Of a stretch of DNA of 18,325 bases, positions 5,451 to 13,169 are shown one piece after another (within the stretch, counting starts at the first letter, position 1; every line of letters begins with the position of its first letter). The notes under the pieces are model-generated. The model ran no database searches. It was not told where the DNA came from and worked only from the letters and a program-made list of their open reading frames with translations. The DNA is from Candidatus Sumerlaeia bacterium (GTDB lineage Bacteria > Sumerlaeota > Sumerlaeia > SLMS01), in assembly GCA_038208905.1 (NCBI GenBank), contig JBBQYG010000071.1, positions 1 to 18,325 on the forward strand. Direction: 5' to 3'. A program made the position numbers and the translations under genes.

Positions 5451-6934
5451 TCCCCGCCTCCGCCCGTGGGGGCCGCCTGTTCGCCGGCGGGGCGTCGCCG
5501 ACGTGGCCGCTCCCCCTCCTGTGGCTGGAGGGCGGGCGGTGGCGGCGCGGCGGCGCGTTTCGCCTCTGCGTCGGCCTCGAGCTGCTTCCTCACCATCGCC
5601 AGCGCTGCGCGGCCAGTCACGCGCGCCTCGTCCAACGTCCCCGCGGGATCGCGCAGGTACACCGTTTCACCCTCGCTCACGTCGCCCTCGATGGCCGCCA
5701 CCAGGTCATTGATTAGCAGCACCTTGGCCGCCTTGAAGGATCCCGGTCCTGTATAGACGCCAAGCTTTCCATCCCGCGCCGCCATCGCCTCGATGGGTAC
5801 GATCAGCGCGTCGTCGGCGCGACCCACTTCGATGCGAGCGGTCGCCGTCATTCCCTGGAAGAAGAGCGGGTTGCTGTCCGCCATGCGGATGCGAACCTCG
5901 AATTCGCGCGGCCCGGTTGTCGTCGTCGATCCGCCGCGCCCCGAACTGGTGTCGATGGGGACGATCGACTTGCGGTCCACCGTGCCCTTGAATCTCTGGC
6001 CGGGGAGCGCGTCGAGAAGGACTTCCGCGGACTGACCGATCTCCACCGATGCGATTTCCAACTCGCTGACCGGCACCAGGGCTACCATCTCCGACCGATC
6101 GGGAATCTCGACCAGGTTCTGGCGCGGAAACACGGAATCGCCCTCCGCCACCTTGGTTGACTGGCCCTGCCGGAAGCTGCGCTGATAGGTGACCTCGCCC
6201 GCCACCGGTGCGCGGAGAACCGCGCTGTCGATTCGTTGCTGTGTGTCGGTCAGCACTTTCTCGATGCGGTCGATCTCGAGTTTTGCCTTGTCGATCTGAG
6301 TCTGCCTTACGCGCAGATTGGAGGCGAGGTTCTCCTCGGTCTTCTTCAGGTTGATGCGCGCGTTGCGGAGTTCCACCGCCGATTGCAGCTTCACGAGCTG
6401 CGCATCGTCGAGGCGGCTCGTCGCGGAGATCTTCCTGTCCACGAGGATCTTCTCGGTGTCGTATTTCATCTCCGAGTCGCGGAGGCGCTGCTCCGCAAGC
6501 TCCACGCGCGCCTGCTCTGCCTCCAGGTTGTACTGATTCTGGATCTCCTGCAGGCGATAGGCTTCCTCCGCCGCCTCGTGGTCCTTCTTCGCCAAGCGCA
6601 GGCTCGCCTCGGTGTCGATCATCTTCTGGTCGAGTTCCTCGGTATCCATCCAGATGACGGGATCCTCCGGGGCGACGCGCGTGCCCTCGGGAACCAGCTT
6701 GACGATCTTCCCCTCGAACGGGGCGGAGAGCAAAGCGCTCCGCGACGCCTTCAACTCGCCGATGCTCGATACCGTGCGGACGACTGATCCCTTGCGGACC
6801 GACGCGGTTGGAATACCGGACGCGCCGCGGGCAGTTGCCGCACTCTGGGCGCGGGCGCTTTCCACGACGGGCATTCCAGCCAGCGATGCAAGACCGACAA
6901 GCGCCGCGACAGCGAAGTGGTTGAGTCTCCTCAC
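5447..6934 (-). CDS. Periplasmic adaptor / membrane fusion protein (MacA/HlyD-like)
   Basis: Split lipoyl halves LSAPFEGKIVKLVPEGTRV and LRAPVAGEV...KVAEGDSV flank a long coiled coil; VSELEIASVEIGQ, FQGMTATARI, ALIVPIEA. GTGA overlap with the TolC gene stop. Confidence 0.93.
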   Translation of the reverse strand: MRRLNHFAVAALVGLASLAGMPVVESARAQSAATARGASGIPTASVRKGSVVRTVSSIGELKASRSALLSAPFEGKIVKLVPEGTRVAPEDPVIWMDTEELDQKMIDTEASLRLAKKDHEAAEEAYRLQEIQNQYNLEAEQARVELAEQRLRDSEMKYDTEKILVDRKISATSRLDDAQLVKLQSAVELRNARINLKKTEENLASNLRVRQTQIDKAKLEIDRIEKVLTDTQQRIDSAVLRAPVAGEVTYQRSFRQGQSTKVAEGDSVFPRQNLVEIPDRSEMVALVPVSELEIASVEIGQSAEVLLDALPGQRFKGTVDRKSIVPIDTSSGRGGSTTTTGPREFEVRIRMADSNPLFFQGMTATARIEVGRADDALIVPIEAMAARDGKLGVYTGPGSFKAAKVLLINDLVAAIEGDVSEGETVYLRDPAGTLDEARVTGRAALAMVRKQLEADAEAKRAAAPPPPALQPQEGERPRRRRPAGEQAAPTGGGGE

Positions 6935-8652
6935 AGCAGCGGCCTTCCCAGCGCCACGTATAGACGCGCGAGCGAAATCTGGTAATCCAGGAATGCGTTG
7001 TTGATGCGGGTCTGGGACTGGAAGAGATCGTCCTGCGCGAGGCGCACTTCAGTGACCGTCGCGAATCCCACCTCGAAGCGGCCGTTGATCAGCTCCAAGC
7101 TCTTTCGCGCTTGCTCCACGCTCTTGCTCAGAATGGTCAGCGTGGCCTCCGTCGCCAAGATGTTGCGTCGGGAGGCGAGGACTTCCTGCGTCAGGTCCCG
7201 CTCGGTGGAAAGGCGGTTGGTCCGCTGCTGCTCCAGGCGGATGACCGCCCGGCGATGGGACTCCCGGCGCTGGATATTGGGGATCGGGATGCGCAGGCCC
7301 AGGCCCGCGTCCCACGAGTTGTCCTCCAGGCCCGCCGCCTCGGTAAATTCCTCGCCCGCGTCGGTGCGGCCGAATCCCGCGTCGAAATCGAGCTGGGGGA
7401 GCAGGTCGTTGCGCGCCAGGCGGCGGTCGATCTCCGAAAGCGCCAGCGACAAGTCCGACCGCATGAGTTCGAGACGCGAATTCAGCGCCTCCTGCACGGA
7501 ATCCTCCGCGGCGGGAACGTCCACCCGGCCCAGCTCCACCAGTTCCGGCGTGATGTCGATGAACGAGATCGGCGTATCGAGCGGAAGGCCCAGCAGGATC
7601 AGCATGTTCTCGCGCTGCTCGTCGAGCTGGCGGCGGCGGCTGATTGCGGTTTCGAGTTCGTTGAGGTAGTTGATCTCCGCGCGCAGGATTTCTGACTCGT
7701 CCACGCGCCCCACGTCATAGCGCACCTGGGTCTCCTCCATGAACTTGAGGCGTTCCTGGATGGCGTCGCGCGAGACCAGGAGCTGTCGCGCGGACTGGAG
7801 AATTCTGAAGTAGTTGCTGATGACGTTGAAGGTCACGTCGCGCGTCTGAATCTGGTCGGCCATGACCTGATCCATTTCCGAGATGCGCGCGCGGCGAAGT
7901 TCCGCCGTTCCCGCGTCAAAGCCGCCGCCCCGCAGGAGCGGCTGGAGGAAGCGCACGTCCACGCGGGAGTCGTAGTCCTTCGTATCGCTGAGTTGCCCCG
8001 ATCCGTCCTTGATGATCGTGTCGTTGCGCCCGGTAACTCCGCTGGCAGTGATCGAACCGCCGCTCTTCAGGTCAACGCCGCCCTCGGCTCCCACCTCGTT
8101 GCGGAACGTCCGCGTGTTCCTGGTGGTCGTCGTGGGATCCGGTTCGGCAAGTGGATCATTAGGATCCGGCGCAGCCGCACGTTCCGCGTTGATGTCGCGG
8201 TCCTCGCGGACGCGGCTGTTGGCGATCAGGTCCACGAAGGGAATGAAAGGCGCCTCGGCGGTGGTCGTGTTGGAGCGGGCGATGCGCACGCTGCGCTCGG
8301 AATTCTCGAGGGTAAAGTTCTGCGCCAGCGCCAGATCGACAAGGCGGGGGAGCGTTATCCTCGAATGGCGGGCCGTCTCGGGAACCTCTGGAAAGATGAT
8401 CGCGCTGGTCCCCCGGTCCTCCGCGACAACGGTGAGCGAGCGAAGATACTCCGCGGCCAGCGTGGACCCAACCCCCTCGGGATACCTTAGGTCCTCGTAG
8501 CCCGGCAGCTCGCCGGGCTTGAGGATGATGATTCCCGAACTCGTCTTCGCGTGCCCGGTCATATCGACCGGGTCCATTGCCCACGCGGTGGAGAGCGCAA
8601 GGCAGAGCGCCCCTACCAGTCCTGACAGTCTTCCCCACTCACCTGCCGCCAT
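6931..8652 (-). CDS. TolC-family outer membrane channel
   Basis: Start re-assigned to ATG 8652 (signal peptide MAAGEWGRLSGLVGALCLALSTAWA). OEP repeat motifs: ITLPRLVDLALAQN, QPLLRGGG, YFRIL, RYDVGR, ALNSRLEL, NDLLPQLD, RFEVGFATVTEVRLAQ, LYVALG. Confidence 0.93.
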   Translation of the reverse strand: MAAGEWGRLSGLVGALCLALSTAWAMDPVDMTGHAKTSSGIIILKPGELPGYEDLRYPEGVGSTLAAEYLRSLTVVAEDRGTSAIIFPEVPETARHSRITLPRLVDLALAQNFTLENSERSVRIARSNTTTAEAPFIPFVDLIANSRVREDRDINAERAAAPDPNDPLAEPDPTTTTRNTRTFRNEVGAEGGVDLKSGGSITASGVTGRNDTIIKDGSGQLSDTKDYDSRVDVRFLQPLLRGGGFDAGTAELRRARISEMDQVMADQIQTRDVTFNVISNYFRILQSARQLLVSRDAIQERLKFMEETQVRYDVGRVDESEILRAEINYLNELETAISRRRQLDEQRENMLILLGLPLDTPISFIDITPELVELGRVDVPAAEDSVQEALNSRLELMRSDLSLALSEIDRRLARNDLLPQLDFDAGFGRTDAGEEFTEAAGLEDNSWDAGLGLRIPIPNIQRRESHRRAVIRLEQQRTNRLSTERDLTQEVLASRRNILATEATLTILSKSVEQARKSLELINGRFEVGFATVTEVRLAQDDLFQSQTRINNAFLDYQISLARLYVALGRPLL

Positions 8653-8856
8653 GCAATTCCCCCTCGGAAAGCTGGAACCAACTTCCAACGGTCCGATCTT
8701 CGCGGCAACCGTATCTTTCGCGAAATGACGATTGCCCTTGCCGTTGTGGGGCCCAGAAAGGAAGGCAGACCGTCCGCAACGGAGCCCTCCGTGGTTCCCG
8801 AGCACATTTGGCAGCGCCCAATCACCCACTCGCAAGGACCCCGGCCCCCCAATTTC

Positions 8857-9699
8857 ATGGAGACGATATCCACCGTCCAGGCAATGCGCGACAAGGCCCG
8901 AGAGCTGCGGCGTTCGGGAAAGAAGATTGCCTTCGTCCCCACCATGGGCGCCCTCCACCGCGGTCACGTGAAGCTCATCGAGCGCGCCAAGCAATCCGGC
9001 GATACCGTGGTGGTGTCCATCTTCGTCAACCCGCGCCAGTTCAACGATCCCGCCGATCTCGCGAAATACCCACGCGACCTCGAGAAGGACAAAAAGCTCT
9101 GCGCCAAGGCGGGCGCACACATCGTCTTCGCGCCCGCCGGGGACGACATGTATCCGCCCGGATTTCTCACCACCGCCAGCGTAAGCCTCCTGACCGCGAA
9201 GTTCGAGGGCGAGCACCGCCCCGGCCACTTCCGCGGCGTTTGCACCGTCGTCCTCAAGCTGCTCATCATCGTCCAGCCCGCCACCCTGATCCTTGGCCTA
9301 AAGGACGCCCAGCAGTTCACCGTCCTCCAGCACATGATTGACGACCTATGCCTCGACGTGGAGGTGATCGGCGTGACCACCGTCCGGGACAAGGACGGGC
9401 TGGCGCTCTCCAGCCGCAACGTCCTGCTCAGCAAGGATGACCGCGCCAAGGCCCTCAGCATGAGCCGCGCCCTCAAGCGCGTCCACTTCCTCGTCCGCAA
9501 GCAGGGCATCCTCCACGCGGGCGAGCTGATGGGAGCCATCCGGTCCACGATCGAGGGCGAGGACGTCGAACTCGACTACGCCGCCATCGTCAACCGCACG
9601 ACGCTGGAGCCCCTCGACCACGTGGTCCGCGGCGGCACCTATGTGCTGCTGGCGATCCGCGTTGGTGGCGTCCGCTTGATCGATACCACGCGCATCTAA
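8857..9699 (+). CDS. panC: Pantoate--beta-alanine ligase (pantothenate synthetase)
   Basis: FVPTMGALHRGH, VSIFVNPRQF, YPRDLEKD, EGEHRPGHFRGVCTVVLKL, GLKDAQQ, VRDKDGLALSSRN, RLID. Start at ATG 8857 gives 280 aa, a typical length. Confidence 0.97.
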   Translation: METISTVQAMRDKARELRRSGKKIAFVPTMGALHRGHVKLIERAKQSGDTVVVSIFVNPRQFNDPADLAKYPRDLEKDKKLCAKAGAHIVFAPAGDDMYPPGFLTTASVSLLTAKFEGEHRPGHFRGVCTVVLKLLIIVQPATLILGLKDAQQFTVLQHMIDDLCLDVEVIGVTTVRDKDGLALSSRNVLLSKDDRAKALSMSRALKRVHFLVRKQGILHAGELMGAIRSTIEGEDVELDYAAIVNRTTLEPLDHVVRGGTYVLLAIRVGGVRLIDTTRI

Positions 9700-9832
9700 G
9701 AAGGCCAAAACGGGTTCCGCGAAATTGGACCGAGGGGCTTCGCGTTTTCCTTGACCGTCGGATTTATAAAAGGCTTTCTCTCGCTCGTCGGGCGGGAACC
9801 GCCCCAATTTTCCGCCCCGAAACGGATCGCGC

Positions 9833-10054
9833 ATGGCATCCAGAAATTCGCATCGCTCCCACCCCCTTCTCACCTTGGATGCCGCCATCGCGGCCACCGC
9901 GCGGCCCCGCCAATTCAAGGACACCGACCCCCAGATGCTCTTTGCCATCTGGCAGATGGAACTCGGCGCCGACCCTGATCGCTCGCTCGACGAAGTTCAG
10001 GACGCCGAAGTCGTTTACGACAAGTTCCGCCCCCGTTTGGCGCCGCGCCGATAG
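9833..10054 (+). CDS. Small hypothetical protein (73 aa)
   Basis: ATG-initiated, fills the panC-cobA gap on the same strand, third codon positions are mostly G/C, and composition is protein-like (DPQMLFAIWQMELGADPDRSLDEV). Confidence 0.6.
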   Translation: MASRNSHRSHPLLTLDAAIAATARPRQFKDTDPQMLFAIWQMELGADPDRSLDEVQDAEVVYDKFRPRLAPRR

Positions 10055-10168
10055 GGGAGGATTAGCGGTCTTCCCTTTACTCCCGCGCCCGCCGCAACAA
10101 TTCTCCGGCACATTGGATCATCAGCCGCGCCGCGGGCACGGCCAAGACGGCGCTCCGGAGCCCCAACC

Positions 10169-11887
10169 GTGGAGTCAGTCACAGGCATTGCACACCTCGT
10201 GGGCATAGGCTCCGGCAGGCCGAGCCTGCTTTCCGGCGAGGCGCGTCACGCAATCCGGGCAGCCGAATGCGCCGTTTACCAGGAAAGCCTTCCCCCCGCC
10301 ATCCTCGCCCTCCTCCCCGACGAGGCCGTGCGCCATTGCCTGGTCTCTCGCGGCGCCAGCGCCACGGAGGAGGAGCATTTCCTGCTCGCGCGCCTCGTGC
10401 GCTCGGGGCAGCGCGTGGTCCGGCTGTTTTCCGGCGATCCGCTTCACTGCGGCGGCATCTCCGAAGTGGCGATCTACCTCGCCTCCCAGGCGATTCCGTT
10501 CGAGGTTGTCCCAGGGATCGATGCGCTTGGAATCCTGGCTGCGGAGTGCGGCATTCCGCTCCTGCATCCCGGAGTGGCAAATTCACTCCTTGTGGTGCGC
10601 GGCCCGCTCTGGCGCGAGCCCGCGCCGGCTATCGTGGAGGAACCCGCCGCGCCGCAGGCGCAGCCCGCCGAGCGTCGACCCGGCGTGAGCGTGCAGCGCC
10701 GCCACAAGGAACCCGGCCTCGTGGACGAGCCGCAATTGCGGCCTGGGATGCGCATGAAGCTGTCGCCCGAGGGCATGTGGATTTCGAGTACCGGCGGCGA
10801 CGCCGCGCCCCCTCTGCGTCTGGAGGAAGACGCGGACGAACGCCCGGGAGCGCGGGTCGAATGGCCTTCCCTATGCCGCGCCGCCGATTCCTTGGTGTTC
10901 CTCAACTGCGGCCATCAGTTCGATCTGATCGGCACTGGCCTCCTCGGCGGGGGGCGCCCACCCTCGGAGCCCGTCGCGATTCTCTCACCCGAGACACGCG
11001 GCCATTGGCGTTGCCGGGTCGTGTCCGTGCGCGAGCTGTCTCGGATTAAGCCAGAGGCCCCCGCCTCTGTCGTGGTTGTGGGCGACGCGGTGGCGTTGCG
11101 GGAGGTGATCCTGCCCCATCGCCAAAAGCCGCTGGAGGGCATCGCCATCGGCATCGCGGGCCCCGAGAACGGCTCCGTCGCCGAGGCTCTCGCGTTCAAC
11201 GGCGCCCGCGTCGTGTTCTACAATATCCTGCGCGCCCATCCCGTGGACGGCATCGGGGAGGAACTCGCCCTGCTGGCCGACGACCTGCGCGCGGCGACTC
11301 ACTTACTCGCGACCTCGCCGGAGTCTGCGCGGCACCTTTTCTCGGGACTTCGCGAGGCGGGTTTGGACGCCCGTGTCATTCCGGAGTTCTGCCGCCTTGC
11401 CGTGGCGGGGTCAGCCTCAGCAGAGGTTTTCTCTGCGCAGGGATTCCGCGTCGACGCGCTTCCCCAGCAGCCCTCCGTGCGGGATATTCTGGACGCATGG
11501 GGAGAGGACCTTTCCACCGCCCGGATCATGCTGTTTTGCGATTCTCCGGGGGAGCCCATCATCGTCTCGCAGCTGCGCCCCTACGGTGCCCGCGTCTCCG
11601 AAATCCCCGTGTGCGCGTTCGAGCCCAACAACCGAGAGCTGGCGCGCCTTGGCGACGATTTGCAGGCGCACTCGCTGGACTACATCGCGTTTTCGACGCC
11701 GGCCGCCGTGCGCGTCTTCGCCGCCCACTGGTCGCCCGATGCGTTTCGGCGCATTGCCGATTCCGCGCCCGCCATCTCGCTCTCGGAACGCGCGACGGAG
11801 CAGATGCTCCATTCCTCCATCACGCCCGCGATCGAGGCAGAGGAACCCGCCGCGCTCATCAAGGCACTACGAACCCGCCGCGCCTAG
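10169..11887 (+). CDS. CobA(SUMT)-HemD fusion homolog (uroporphyrinogen-III methyltransferase/synthase architecture), strongly divergent
   Basis: Tetrapyrrole methylase landmarks HLVGIGSGRPSLLS, VVRLFSGDP, FEVVPGI, GIPL, PVAI, PASVVVVGDAVALR; linker KPLEG; HemD landmarks LLATSPESARHLF, GLDAR, LAVAGSASAE, LDYIAFSTPAAVRVF. Confidence 0.85.
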   Translation: MESVTGIAHLVGIGSGRPSLLSGEARHAIRAAECAVYQESLPPAILALLPDEAVRHCLVSRGASATEEEHFLLARLVRSGQRVVRLFSGDPLHCGGISEVAIYLASQAIPFEVVPGIDALGILAAECGIPLLHPGVANSLLVVRGPLWREPAPAIVEEPAAPQAQPAERRPGVSVQRRHKEPGLVDEPQLRPGMRMKLSPEGMWISSTGGDAAPPLRLEEDADERPGARVEWPSLCRAADSLVFLNCGHQFDLIGTGLLGGGRPPSEPVAILSPETRGHWRCRVVSVRELSRIKPEAPASVVVVGDAVALREVILPHRQKPLEGIAIGIAGPENGSVAEALAFNGARVVFYNILRAHPVDGIGEELALLADDLRAATHLLATSPESARHLFSGLREAGLDARVIPEFCRLAVAGSASAEVFSAQGFRVDALPQQPSVRDILDAWGEDLSTARIMLFCDSPGEPIIVSQLRPYGARVSEIPVCAFEPNNRELARLGDDLQAHSLDYIAFSTPAAVRVFAAHWSPDAFRRIADSAPAISLSERATEQMLHSSITPAIEAEEPAALIKALRTRRA

Positions 11888-13021
11888 CGCGCGCCCATAG
11901 GCGACCAGGTATTCCTCGGCTGTGGAAGCGATGGAGAAGTTTTCCTCCGCATGTCGCCGACAGCCTGCGCGTATTTCGTCGCCGCGCGATTGAATCGCCT
12001 CTGCCCCCGCCAACGTCGCATTCGCCCAAGCCGCCGCACTGTCGCCCTCCACCAGCCAGCCAAATGGCATCGGCGGGAGGAGTTCCTCAGGCCCCGCCCC
12101 GACGCGCGCCACCACGGGCATGCCCGACGCCAGTGCCTCCGCGATCGCAAGGCCAAAGGGCTCGTCCCGCGATGGATGCAGCAGGATGTCCGCCGCCGCC
12201 AGCGCCGTTGCCGCCACCGGTACCTGACCCATCAGGCGCACCGCGCCCGATAAATCGAGCGCCGACGCCCGCGCCCGAAGGCGCCGCGCCAGCGGGCCCT
12301 CCCCCGCGAACGCGAGCACTGCGGCTGGCAGCGCACGGCGAAGGCGCGCCACAGCCTCCAGCGCCACCATCGGCGCCTTGCGCTCGATCAGCGACCCCAG
12401 CACGAGGACCAGCGGAAAAGCGTCACGCGGCAGTCCTAGTTCCGACCGCGCGGCAAGGCGCTGCTCTGTTGTGGGCACCGCAATCGTGGAAAGATCGACG
12501 CCATTCCCAACCTCGATGATGCGGCGCGCGGGAACTCCTTCTCTCAGCAGGTCGCGCCGCACCTTGTGCGAGATCGCACATACCGTCACGTGACGGGTGA
12601 GGCTTTGCAGATACCAGCGCCTGACCAGAGGCCGCAGGAGGGGGCCCCGCTCGCCCCACGCATGGACGCCGTGCTCGGTGACCAACAGTGGCAGGCCCGA
12701 GCCTTCCGCGGCCGCGCGCCCCGTGACATCTGCGCGCAGCAGGTGCGCGTGGAGCACGTTCGCGTCCCACTCCTGCGCCAGCTTCGCAACCCGCGCACCT
12801 GCCCGCGCCGCGCGATGGAATTGCATCGGCACGGCGGCGGTTTGCCCGCCAAGGCGCGACACTTCTCCCTCCATGGCCAACCGCAAGGGACCGTCTTCCC
12901 GAAGCGACACGACGCTGACACGGATGTCCTCCGCTTGCCATTGCCTCAACAGGTCCAGAACCAGACGCCCAGGACCATCGGCCTCGAAGCCGCGGAGGAT
13001 TGTAAGCACATGGGGAGTCAA
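11867..13021 (-). CDS. Glycosyltransferase family 4 (retaining GT-B)
   Basis: LHAHL, VTEHG, VGNGVD, GSLIERKA, AGEGPL, ADILLHPSRDEPFGLAIAEALASGMPVVA (E-x7-E), ENFS. TTG start is uncertain. 3' end overlaps the convergent cobA-hemD by 21 bp. Confidence 0.95.
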   Translation of the reverse strand: MTPHVLTILRGFEADGPGRLVLDLLRQWQAEDIRVSVVSLREDGPLRLAMEGEVSRLGGQTAAVPMQFHRAARAGARVAKLAQEWDANVLHAHLLRADVTGRAAAEGSGLPLLVTEHGVHAWGERGPLLRPLVRRWYLQSLTRHVTVCAISHKVRRDLLREGVPARRIIEVGNGVDLSTIAVPTTEQRLAARSELGLPRDAFPLVLVLGSLIERKAPMVALEAVARLRRALPAAVLAFAGEGPLARRLRARASALDLSGAVRLMGQVPVAATALAAADILLHPSRDEPFGLAIAEALASGMPVVARVGAGPEELLPPMPFGWLVEGDSAAAWANATLAGAEAIQSRGDEIRAGCRRHAEENFSIASTAEEYLVAYGRALGAAGS

Positions 13022-13084
13022 GGCGCTACAATTCCCCCTTGCCTGATGGCGCCCCGGCGATAGGCAATTGGGGCCGCACCGTGT

Positions 13085-13169
13085 GCAGGCGTGGCGAAAC
13101 TGGCAGACGCGCTGGATTTAGGTTCCAGTGGGGCAACCCGTGAAGGTTCGAGTCCTTTCGCCTGCACCA
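13085..13169 (+). tRNA. tRNA-Leu(TAG), 85 nt, CCA encoded
   Basis: Acceptor stem GCAGGCG/CGCCTGC followed by A-CCA; D-loop TGGCAGAC; anticodon arm CTGGA-TTTAGGT-TCCAG (TAG at 13119-13121); long variable arm GGG-GCAA-CCC; T-loop GGTTCGAGTCC. Confidence 0.98.

Follow-up and report, generated by a model that had tools for sequence, protein, structure and literature searches.

We analysed a stretch of 18,325 nucleotides (contig JBBQYG010000071.1 of assembly GCA_038208905.1, from a Candidatus Sumerlaeia bacterium; hereafter the window), and in it a forward-strand gene at positions 10169 to 11887 that encodes a fusion of a CobA-type S-adenosylmethionine uroporphyrinogen-III methyltransferase (SUMT) with a HemD-type uroporphyrinogen-III synthase (UROS). 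This gene is probably a pseudoenzyme under selection: it appears redundant as a uroporphyrinogen-III methyltransferase and would be kept for a role independent of SUMT and UROS catalysis. Its open reading frame (ORF) starts with GTG and its translation runs over 572 amino acids with zero internal stops. The methylase domain is N-terminal and the HemD domain C-terminal in one chain, i.e. the order of CobA/HemD fusions is kept (Pfam and AlphaFold2, AF2). Pfam TP_methylase (PF00590) matches residues 9-145 with 79.9 bits, covering only profile positions 3-142 of 212, and HEM4 (PF02602) matches residues 337-561 with 83.3 bits for a cut-off of 27.5. A first interpretation made from the letters and translations (the sequence-only reading) had described an intact fusion of this length with conserved motifs eroded in both halves and no other hem, cys or cob gene in the window. 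The unbroken translation and the two consecutive Pfam matches agree with the first point; the survey of the window genes, which found no hem, cys or cob gene besides this ORF, agrees with the last.

The redundancy appears from the rest of the assembly, which is 93.9% complete and holds exactly two TP_methylase and three HEM4 loci. Contig C38 carries a canonical CobA-HemD gene, the kind of paralog that the sequence-only reading had proposed to look for; all its motifs are intact and the profile match is full-length (157 bits). It lies in a siroheme/sulfate-assimilation cluster with a precorrin-2 dehydrogenase-type gene (NAD_binding_7), CbiX, Sat-CysC (ATP sulfurylase/adenosine 5'-phosphosulfate kinase), a 3'-phosphoadenosine 5'-phosphosulfate reductase and the siroheme sulfite reductase (NIR_SIR). 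Contig C85 carries hemA, a HemC-HemD fusion and hemL. With a canonical CobA-HemD on C38 and a HemC-HemD on C85, the window copy is redundant and not the sole copy. The gene content clearly assigns the predicted synthesis of siroheme in the host to the canonical CobA-HemD of C38, not to the window gene. By BLASTP the window protein and this canonical copy align at 32% over 139 residues and 26% over 294 residues. As a separate observation, URO-D (hemE) gave no match in the whole host genome (G000), so the tetrapyrrole pathway may serve siroheme only.

The methylase half was compared residue by residue with NirE, in which the native number is the chain index minus 5 (verified on K102, D105, I108, R111, E114 and E115 per PMC4731766). 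Eight functional residues of NirE, supported by mutagenesis or structure, were scored: D50, R51, K102, D105, R111, E114, R149 and M186. The window protein reads Q, E, F, D, G, E, P and N at these positions respectively, thus keeping two of the eight (D105 and E114), and has Pro at the equivalent of NirE H161. Seven or eight of these residues are retained by 57/59 canonical CobA-HemD proteins. According to passages of PMC4731766, which sum up the earlier mutagenesis of NirE, the substitution K102A abolishes activity and weakens the binding of S-adenosylmethionine (SAM), R111K and E114Q cut activity by 94% and 84% respectively, and M186L loses 84% of activity with strongly lowered SAM binding. 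The glycine-rich SAM loop GxGPGD reads GIGSGR in the window protein: G12, G14 and G16 are retained, P15 is changed to Ser and D17 to Arg. Among 22 canonical CobA-HemD proteins, 68 alignment columns show at least 85% identity; 33 of these are retained by the window protein and 49-56 by the sister-family orthologs with full-length coverage. It also misses the SUMT equivalogs TIGR01469 (84.7 vs 185 bits), NF004790 (85.1 vs 198) and the CysG model NF007922 (90.7 vs 400). Judged from these alignments, the erosion of motifs in the window protein exceeds chance. The individual changes reported in the sequence-only reading could all be located: GIGSGR at residues 12-17, YQES at 37-40, RLFSGDP at 85-91, CGGISE at 94-99, VPGIDA at 114-119, RGP at 144-146, VFLNC at 243-247, IAGP at 329-332, PVCAF at 480-484 and FST at 508-510.

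What that reading had overlooked, its list of motifs being otherwise borne out, is an insert of about 80 residues (149-228) with a conserved basic motif, which is the best lead to a new role. The insert is rich in Pro, Glu, Ala and Arg and stands at the site of the canonical short TGH linker, TGH itself being changed to RGP. Pfam covers the N-lobe alone because the insert splits the methylase domain. The AF2 model of the window protein has a mean predicted local distance difference test score (pLDDT) of 86.8 and a predicted template modelling score (pTM) of 0.76, only the insert being below 60. It matches CobA (1s4d), NirE (2ybq) and CysG (1pjq) by Foldseek (E 1e-16 to 1e-14; template modelling score, TM, 0.77-0.84, target-normalised) and also the Thermus UROS. 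In this model both the bilobal methylase fold and the HemD fold are clearly retained. The basic motif is recognisable in 33/34 insert-bearing (INS) proteins, as read by eye from the alignment, and the insert outside this motif is largely unconserved (21-24% pairwise identity). When AF2 was run with an alignment of INS proteins only, the insert remained disordered and the motif did not dock.

Full-length relatives of the window protein, at about 25-30% identity, occur in its family and order and all carry the insert. The order survey covered 25 genomes: 11 of the window's family (f1), 11 of family f3 and three of families f2 and f4 together; the INS type was found in all four families. A representative library provided 27 further insert-bearing cluster representatives, all with open ORFs. 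The tree was computed by a quick search after removal of the insert columns, and has long branches in f1. In this tree the INS proteins of f1, f3 and f4 form one clade of 20 rows (Shimodaira-Hasegawa-like approximate likelihood ratio test, SH-aLRT, 98), inside which f3 is monophyletic (SH-aLRT 96) and the window protein falls in an f1 subgroup (SH-aLRT 96); the canonical f1 copies group apart from it in a clade of their own (SH-aLRT 100). As far as the tree and the searches go, the INS protein is vertically inherited and specific to the order. A single clade for all 32 sequences of the order was not rejected (approximately unbiased test, p-AU 0.349); duplication within the order and transfer of the canonical copy are therefore indistinguishable. 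No protein at 35-99% identity to the window protein was found in a library of 1.84 billion proteins. A scan of genome contigs with P0001 returned canonical enzymes of other phyla only, a scan with P0068 returned one relative at 39% identity, and the ESM Atlas returned ordinary CobA-HemD clusters only.

The three groups of families differ in their need for this protein as an enzyme. In f3 the INS protein is the sole TP_methylase, in genomes with NIR_SIR (11/11), hemC (10/11) and a dedicated hemD (11/11), and eight representatives of the intact type retain 6-7 of the eight NirE residues. It is presumably the working SUMT of the f3 genomes. In f1 the canonical copy is present in 11/11 genomes, at most about 4 kb from NIR_SIR on one contig in 9/11, together with tetrapyrrole/siroheme genes; the INS gene is found in seven of the 11, open in all seven, and 15 representatives of the eroded type retain 1-4 of the eight residues in a mosaic pattern. 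In f2 and f4 (three genomes, 80-93% complete) there is an intact INS ORF and no other SUMT; hemB, hemC and a siroheme enzyme (NIR_SIR) were not found, and representatives of the f4 type retain 4-5 of 8. Across these alignments the integrity of the predicted active site clearly tracks the need for SUMT, the residues being kept only in genomes that have no SUMT other than the INS protein. Besides, genus g16 of f3 has an intact CobA-only gene that belongs to the INS clade although insert and HemD half are both missing (open frame of 282-321 amino acids; G018:C9 L041 and L063, G023:C393 L043). A PF00590 fragment (G010:C117) was considered as an INS remnant and rejected: it duplicates the N-terminus of the canonical copy at a contig end. 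In one f2 genome (G011) we also observed eight matches to the URO-D family despite hemB and hemC not being found; these may be MtaA/CmuA-type methyltransferases.

The HemD-like half lends itself less to a conclusion. The tyrosine present in 57/59 canonical fusions is replaced by Cys482; the title of a reference in PMC7242693 indicates that an active-site Tyr is important in the Anacystis uroporphyrinogen-III synthase. The TR motif, found in 47/59 canonical proteins, reads AG in the window protein, which has ATS and FST instead of FTS. Residues specific of the eroded group are present (DDLR at 371-374, C408, R452, R470 and W521). The HemD equivalogs of NCBIfam are missed, the best being NF004593 with 28.1 vs 275 bits. 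The HemD halves are nevertheless degenerate throughout the INS clade, even next to an intact methylase (Tyr in 12/27), so the erosion of this half in the window protein is old and not specific to it. Moreover, in the genome scan the window protein scores 86 bits against HEM4, more than the 71 bits of the canonical paralog on C38. For these two reasons the part of the sequence-only reading that relied on the HemD half has little weight.

It seems very improbable that the protein still works as a SUMT and/or UROS by means of an unusual active site, e.g. a low-activity backup or an enzyme for a related tetrapyrrole. HemD enzymes tolerate great sequence variation, and the fold, the domain order, the equivalents of E114, D105 and GDP, and a HEM4 score of 83-86 bits, well over the cut-off, would be compatible with residual activity. 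However, six of the eight NirE residues are replaced non-conservatively, the HemD Tyr of 57/59 canonical fusions is Cys, both activities are supplied by other loci of the genome, and relatives persist in genomes in which no uroporphyrinogen pathway was found. Among the six is the equivalent of K102, whose Ala mutant is reported as inactive in passages of PMC4731766.

Several observations indicate that the gene is under selection. Neutral drift was simulated with substitutions only, down to 33% amino-acid identity: the simulated genes had a mean of 10.8 in-frame stops and none of the 200 runs remained stop-free, unlike the INS copies found, whose ORFs are all open. Conservation reaches at least 80% at 68 columns of the 15 eroded-type proteins, and 30 of these columns are not conserved in the canonical enzymes; the clade-specific ones include GP146, P171-G172, R177, DDxR 371-374, C408, R452, R470 and W521. 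The window protein matches 57 of the 68. Within the insert motif all of the eroded-type proteins have G172, and at least 80% of them have P171 and R177. Two eroded proteins from related lineages are 61% identical overall, stretches of the N-lobe being the best conserved. Differences between strains were taken from contigs of four public metagenome runs aligned to positions 8700-13050: in the gene they amount to six synonymous and four non-synonymous single-nucleotide polymorphisms (SNPs), i.e. a ratio of non-synonymous to synonymous polymorphism (pN/pS) of about 0.25 (p = 0.028 in a binomial test against 27% synonymous sites). The insert contains three of the four non-synonymous SNPs. The neighbouring GT4 gene has 10 synonymous and three non-synonymous differences. 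As the sites are few and the contigs shallow, the SNP evidence is supportive at most. On the whole of these comparisons, the ORF is clearly kept open by selection.

The alternative here is a relic in slow decay, useless since the canonical copy took over and simply unbroken so far. We regard it as quite unlikely. Between the same genomes the INS proteins share 24-27% identity, the canonical copies 38-49% and panC 65-68%, the INS gene being the fastest-evolving of the genes compared; it was not found in 4/11 genomes of the family, and the N-half PF00590 score of the window protein (78 bits) is near the bottom of the range (family 61-99). These three observations would fit decay. A decaying gene would nevertheless hardly remain open in 7/7 family carriers and 27/27 cluster representatives when simulations fail to do so even without indels; the excess of synonymous SNPs, the 30 clade-specific conserved columns with the conserved loop motif, and the 61% identity of the eroded pair, highest in the N-lobe, also speak against it. 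The sequence-only reading had named neutral decay of the orthologs as a result that would go against it; the intact ORFs in seven of the 11 family genomes and all 27 representatives, with their clade-specific conserved columns, indicate no neutral decay.

Selection could also act on a retargeted SAM-dependent methyltransferase, which would have retained the class III fold with some of the SAM site and acquired a new, non-tetrapyrrole substrate, perhaps recruited by the loop (e.g. RNA or protein). RNA (RsmI) and protein (Dph5) are both substrates of methyltransferases with this fold. The 15 eroded-type proteins do conserve G12, G14, G89-D90-P91, P115-G116 and G128-I129-P130, and where canonical enzymes have TGH the group conserves an xGP of its own. 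But this seems unlikely because in the window protein the SAM-contact positions are altered (P15S, Asp118 for the Ser/Thr of VPGIT/S, Asn for NirE M186, Phe for K102), and the NirE changes K102A and M186L strongly reduce SAM binding in the passages of PMC4731766 that report them. Positions 87, 96, 134 and 246 vary freely among the eroded proteins, which resembles relaxation rather than a new fixed active site. The idea that the INS protein replaces RsmI was likewise abandoned. RsmI (TIGR00096) is above cut-off in 2/73 genomes of the class, with any match in 4/73, and the genomes of the order have no TP_methylase besides CobA-type genes; they have no RsmI-type PF00590 gene. RsmI is thus missing in 69/73 class genomes with or without the insert (the 48 genomes beyond the order were not checked individually for it); its absence is class-wide and unrelated to the insert, and there is therefore no compensating pattern.

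We come back to a pseudoenzyme under selection. Since almost all the residues for its chemistry are lost and the gene is nevertheless under selection, the window protein probably does a different, non-enzymatic job now. The sequence-only reading had called it a candidate pseudo-enzyme, which fits with the existence of a canonical paralog and with orthologs that are not in neutral decay. There is doubt about its second proposal, a repurposed tetrapyrrole-binding protein: the carboxylates of uroporphyrinogen are held by the basic residues that have been lost here, and the gene persists in three genomes in which no hemB, hemC or siroheme enzyme was found.

The ancestral bifunctional INS protein may already have had a second role requiring neither SUMT nor UROS catalysis. 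This second function would predate the erosion because the insert and its motif are present in the active f3 proteins. Its carriers would be the HemD-like half and the basic motif of the disordered loop between the lobes, as suggested by the complementary losses in g16 on the one hand and f1, f2 and f4 on the other. The most likely role would be that of a scaffold or regulator binding an anionic partner (a protein, nucleic acid or membrane surface), since the motif is Arg-rich in a disordered and otherwise acidic loop. We tentatively propose, as a possibility we hold with less than even confidence, that the ancestral INS CobA-HemD was a moonlighting protein, acting as the methylase of the siroheme branch and exerting a tetrapyrrole-independent function via the Arg-rich loop motif and the degenerate HemD-like domain. 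It would later have been split by complementary losses: one genus kept the methylase only, without loop and HemD half, while the window's family and the two families without detected tetrapyrrole synthesis genes kept the second function only. If this is true, the window gene shows an enzyme caught on its way to becoming a dedicated scaffold or regulator.

A number of observations weigh against a selected pseudoenzyme. The glycine-loop, GDP and VPG elements persist and are compatible with SAM binding. The SNP sample is small (10 sites, low-depth contigs), with no significant difference from the GT4 gene (Fisher p = 0.65). Few INS proteins are as eroded as that of the window, which is off the consensus of the eroded group at 11/68 columns; this could mean ongoing decay. 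The missing hem genes of f2 and f4 are judged on genomes that are 80-93% complete. The INS gene was not found in 4/11 f1 genomes (completeness 75-91%; the region downstream of panC was examined directly in three), so the role would be dispensable. Finally, no function emerged for the insert or its motif, which is disordered in both AF2 runs, and synteny is uninformative beyond the family.

Table 1. Positions in the window of the CobA-HemD paralog and its parts.
Feature	Position	Strand	Evidence and remarks
Whole ORF, insert-bearing (INS-type) CobA-HemD paralog	10169..11887	+	Stop codon 11885-11887; a 99%-identical cluster representative (P0002) has the same start
Candidate ribosome-binding site GGAG, 8 nt 5' of the GTG	10157..10160	+	Putative, from reading of the sequence
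SUMT N-lobe, residues 1-148, motifs eroded (GIGSGR, YQES, RLFSGDP, CGGISE, VPGIDA, LHP, RGP)	10169..10612	+	Pfam TP_methylase 9-145; PDB alignments to NirE, CobA and CysG; residue table; pLDDT 85-97
Clade-specific disordered inter-lobe insert, residues 149-228	10613..10852	+	In all INS-clade proteins, not in canonical CobA-HemD; pLDDT mostly <60 in both AF2 runs
Conserved basic short linear motif RRPGVSVQRRHK, residues 169-180	10673..10708	+	Clade consensus [RK][RK]PG[VI]x[VI][RK]RRxK
SUMT C-lobe, residues 229-315: W232, ADS, VFLNCG (Asn at NirE Met186), GGGR, EPVA, VVVGDAV	10853..11113	+	Second HMMER domain to NirE/CobA; pLDDT 80-98; Foldseek to 1s4d, TM 0.77-0.84 (target-normalised)
HemD-like (UROS-fold) half, residues 320-572	11126..11884	+	Pfam HEM4 337-561; column counts; Foldseek to T. 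thermophilus UROS

The window gene is flanked by panC and a GT4 glycosyltransferase gene. This synteny was considered as a clue to function and rejected, the order panC-INS-GT4 being found within the family only (G006 and G004; panC-INS in G008). In f3 the neighbours of the INS gene are housekeeping genes (dapD, recA, psd, and SulP once), with no recurring partner. Rfam gave no match in 9650-10250 with E up to 1, and no promoter-like or terminator-like site was found in 9500-12300. The only Rfam match of the window at gathering level is a tRNA gene (RF00005, 53.4 bits) at 13085-13166 (+), between the GT4 and the PMT_2 glycosyltransferase genes. Between panC and the INS gene an ORF of 73 amino acids at 9833-10054 (+), without Pfam match, has a core reading ...TDPQMLFAIWQMELGADPDRSLDEVQDAEVVYDKFRPRLAPRR. 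This core is found with 47-71% identity directly 3' of panC in 6/6 family loci examined, including three genomes without INS gene; the listed ORF of 109 amino acids at 9879-10208 is a wrong frame over it. The TolC-like ORF 6931-9228 (-), listed with 765 amino acids, overlaps panC (8725-9699, +). Because its OEP match stops at residue 761, the real start codon may be located further downstream, and the long N-terminal extension may be spurious.

Short motifs outside the conserved columns were also noted among the relatives. An acidic C-terminal tail ending in [DN]W is present in 5/15 eroded-type relatives, P0043, P0046, P0048, P0053 and P0062 (EDW, TDW, DNW, EDW and TNW respectively); the window protein has no acidic tail and ends in ...ALRTRRA. 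A second short motif of the insert, WSPDDT, occurs in three eroded-type relatives (P0047, P0055 and P0067) and is absent from the window protein. A regular expression for the loop motif and the acidic D/N-W tails gave spurious-frame matches only across G000, the pattern being too strict even for the motif of the window protein.

Annotation pipelines would label this gene "uroporphyrinogen-III C-methyltransferase/synthase". In two sister families the INS gene is the sole tetrapyrrole-type gene found, and metabolic reconstructions would wrongly credit these bacteria with a capacity for precorrin-2 or siroheme. The occurrence in one clade of active, half-eroded and fully eroded forms, the erosion following the need, offers a natural series for the change from enzyme to pseudoenzyme, and a conserved basic motif in an otherwise unconserved loop gives a handle on a second function of a tetrapyrrole enzyme. 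In the literature, judged by titles, we found no account of a dead SUMT or CobA-HemD paralog.

Among known systems, NirE (2YBQ/2YBO), CobA (1S4D) and the methylase domain of CysG (1PJQ) have the same bilobal class III fold, and the N-lobe of the window protein matches their sequences with E 2e-17 to 1e-15. It keeps their GDP, VPG and GIP elements. It differs from NirE by D50Q, R51E, K102F, R111G, R149P, M186N and H161P, by the insert between the lobes and by scores below the NCBIfam equivalog cut-offs. A bifunctional CobA/HemD enzyme with UROS and SUMT activities is known in Desulfovibrio vulgaris, as cited in PMC3004389. With such fusions the window protein shares the methylase-HemD order and the overall length class; canonical fusions, in contrast, have 7-8 of the eight SUMT residues (57/59), the HemD Tyr (57/59) and no insert. 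The host's own canonical copy lies in the siroheme/sulfate cluster, whereas the window gene lies between panC and a glycosyltransferase gene. The closest comparison is with the INS CobA-HemD proteins of f3 (e.g. P0051, G012), which have in common with the window protein the clade, the insert, the basic motif, Leu for the Thr of PxTHR, the W232/AADT block and a degenerate HemD half. They differ from it in that they keep 6-7 of the eight SUMT residues, have an HGR motif where the window protein has RGP, and are the sole TP_methylase of their genome.

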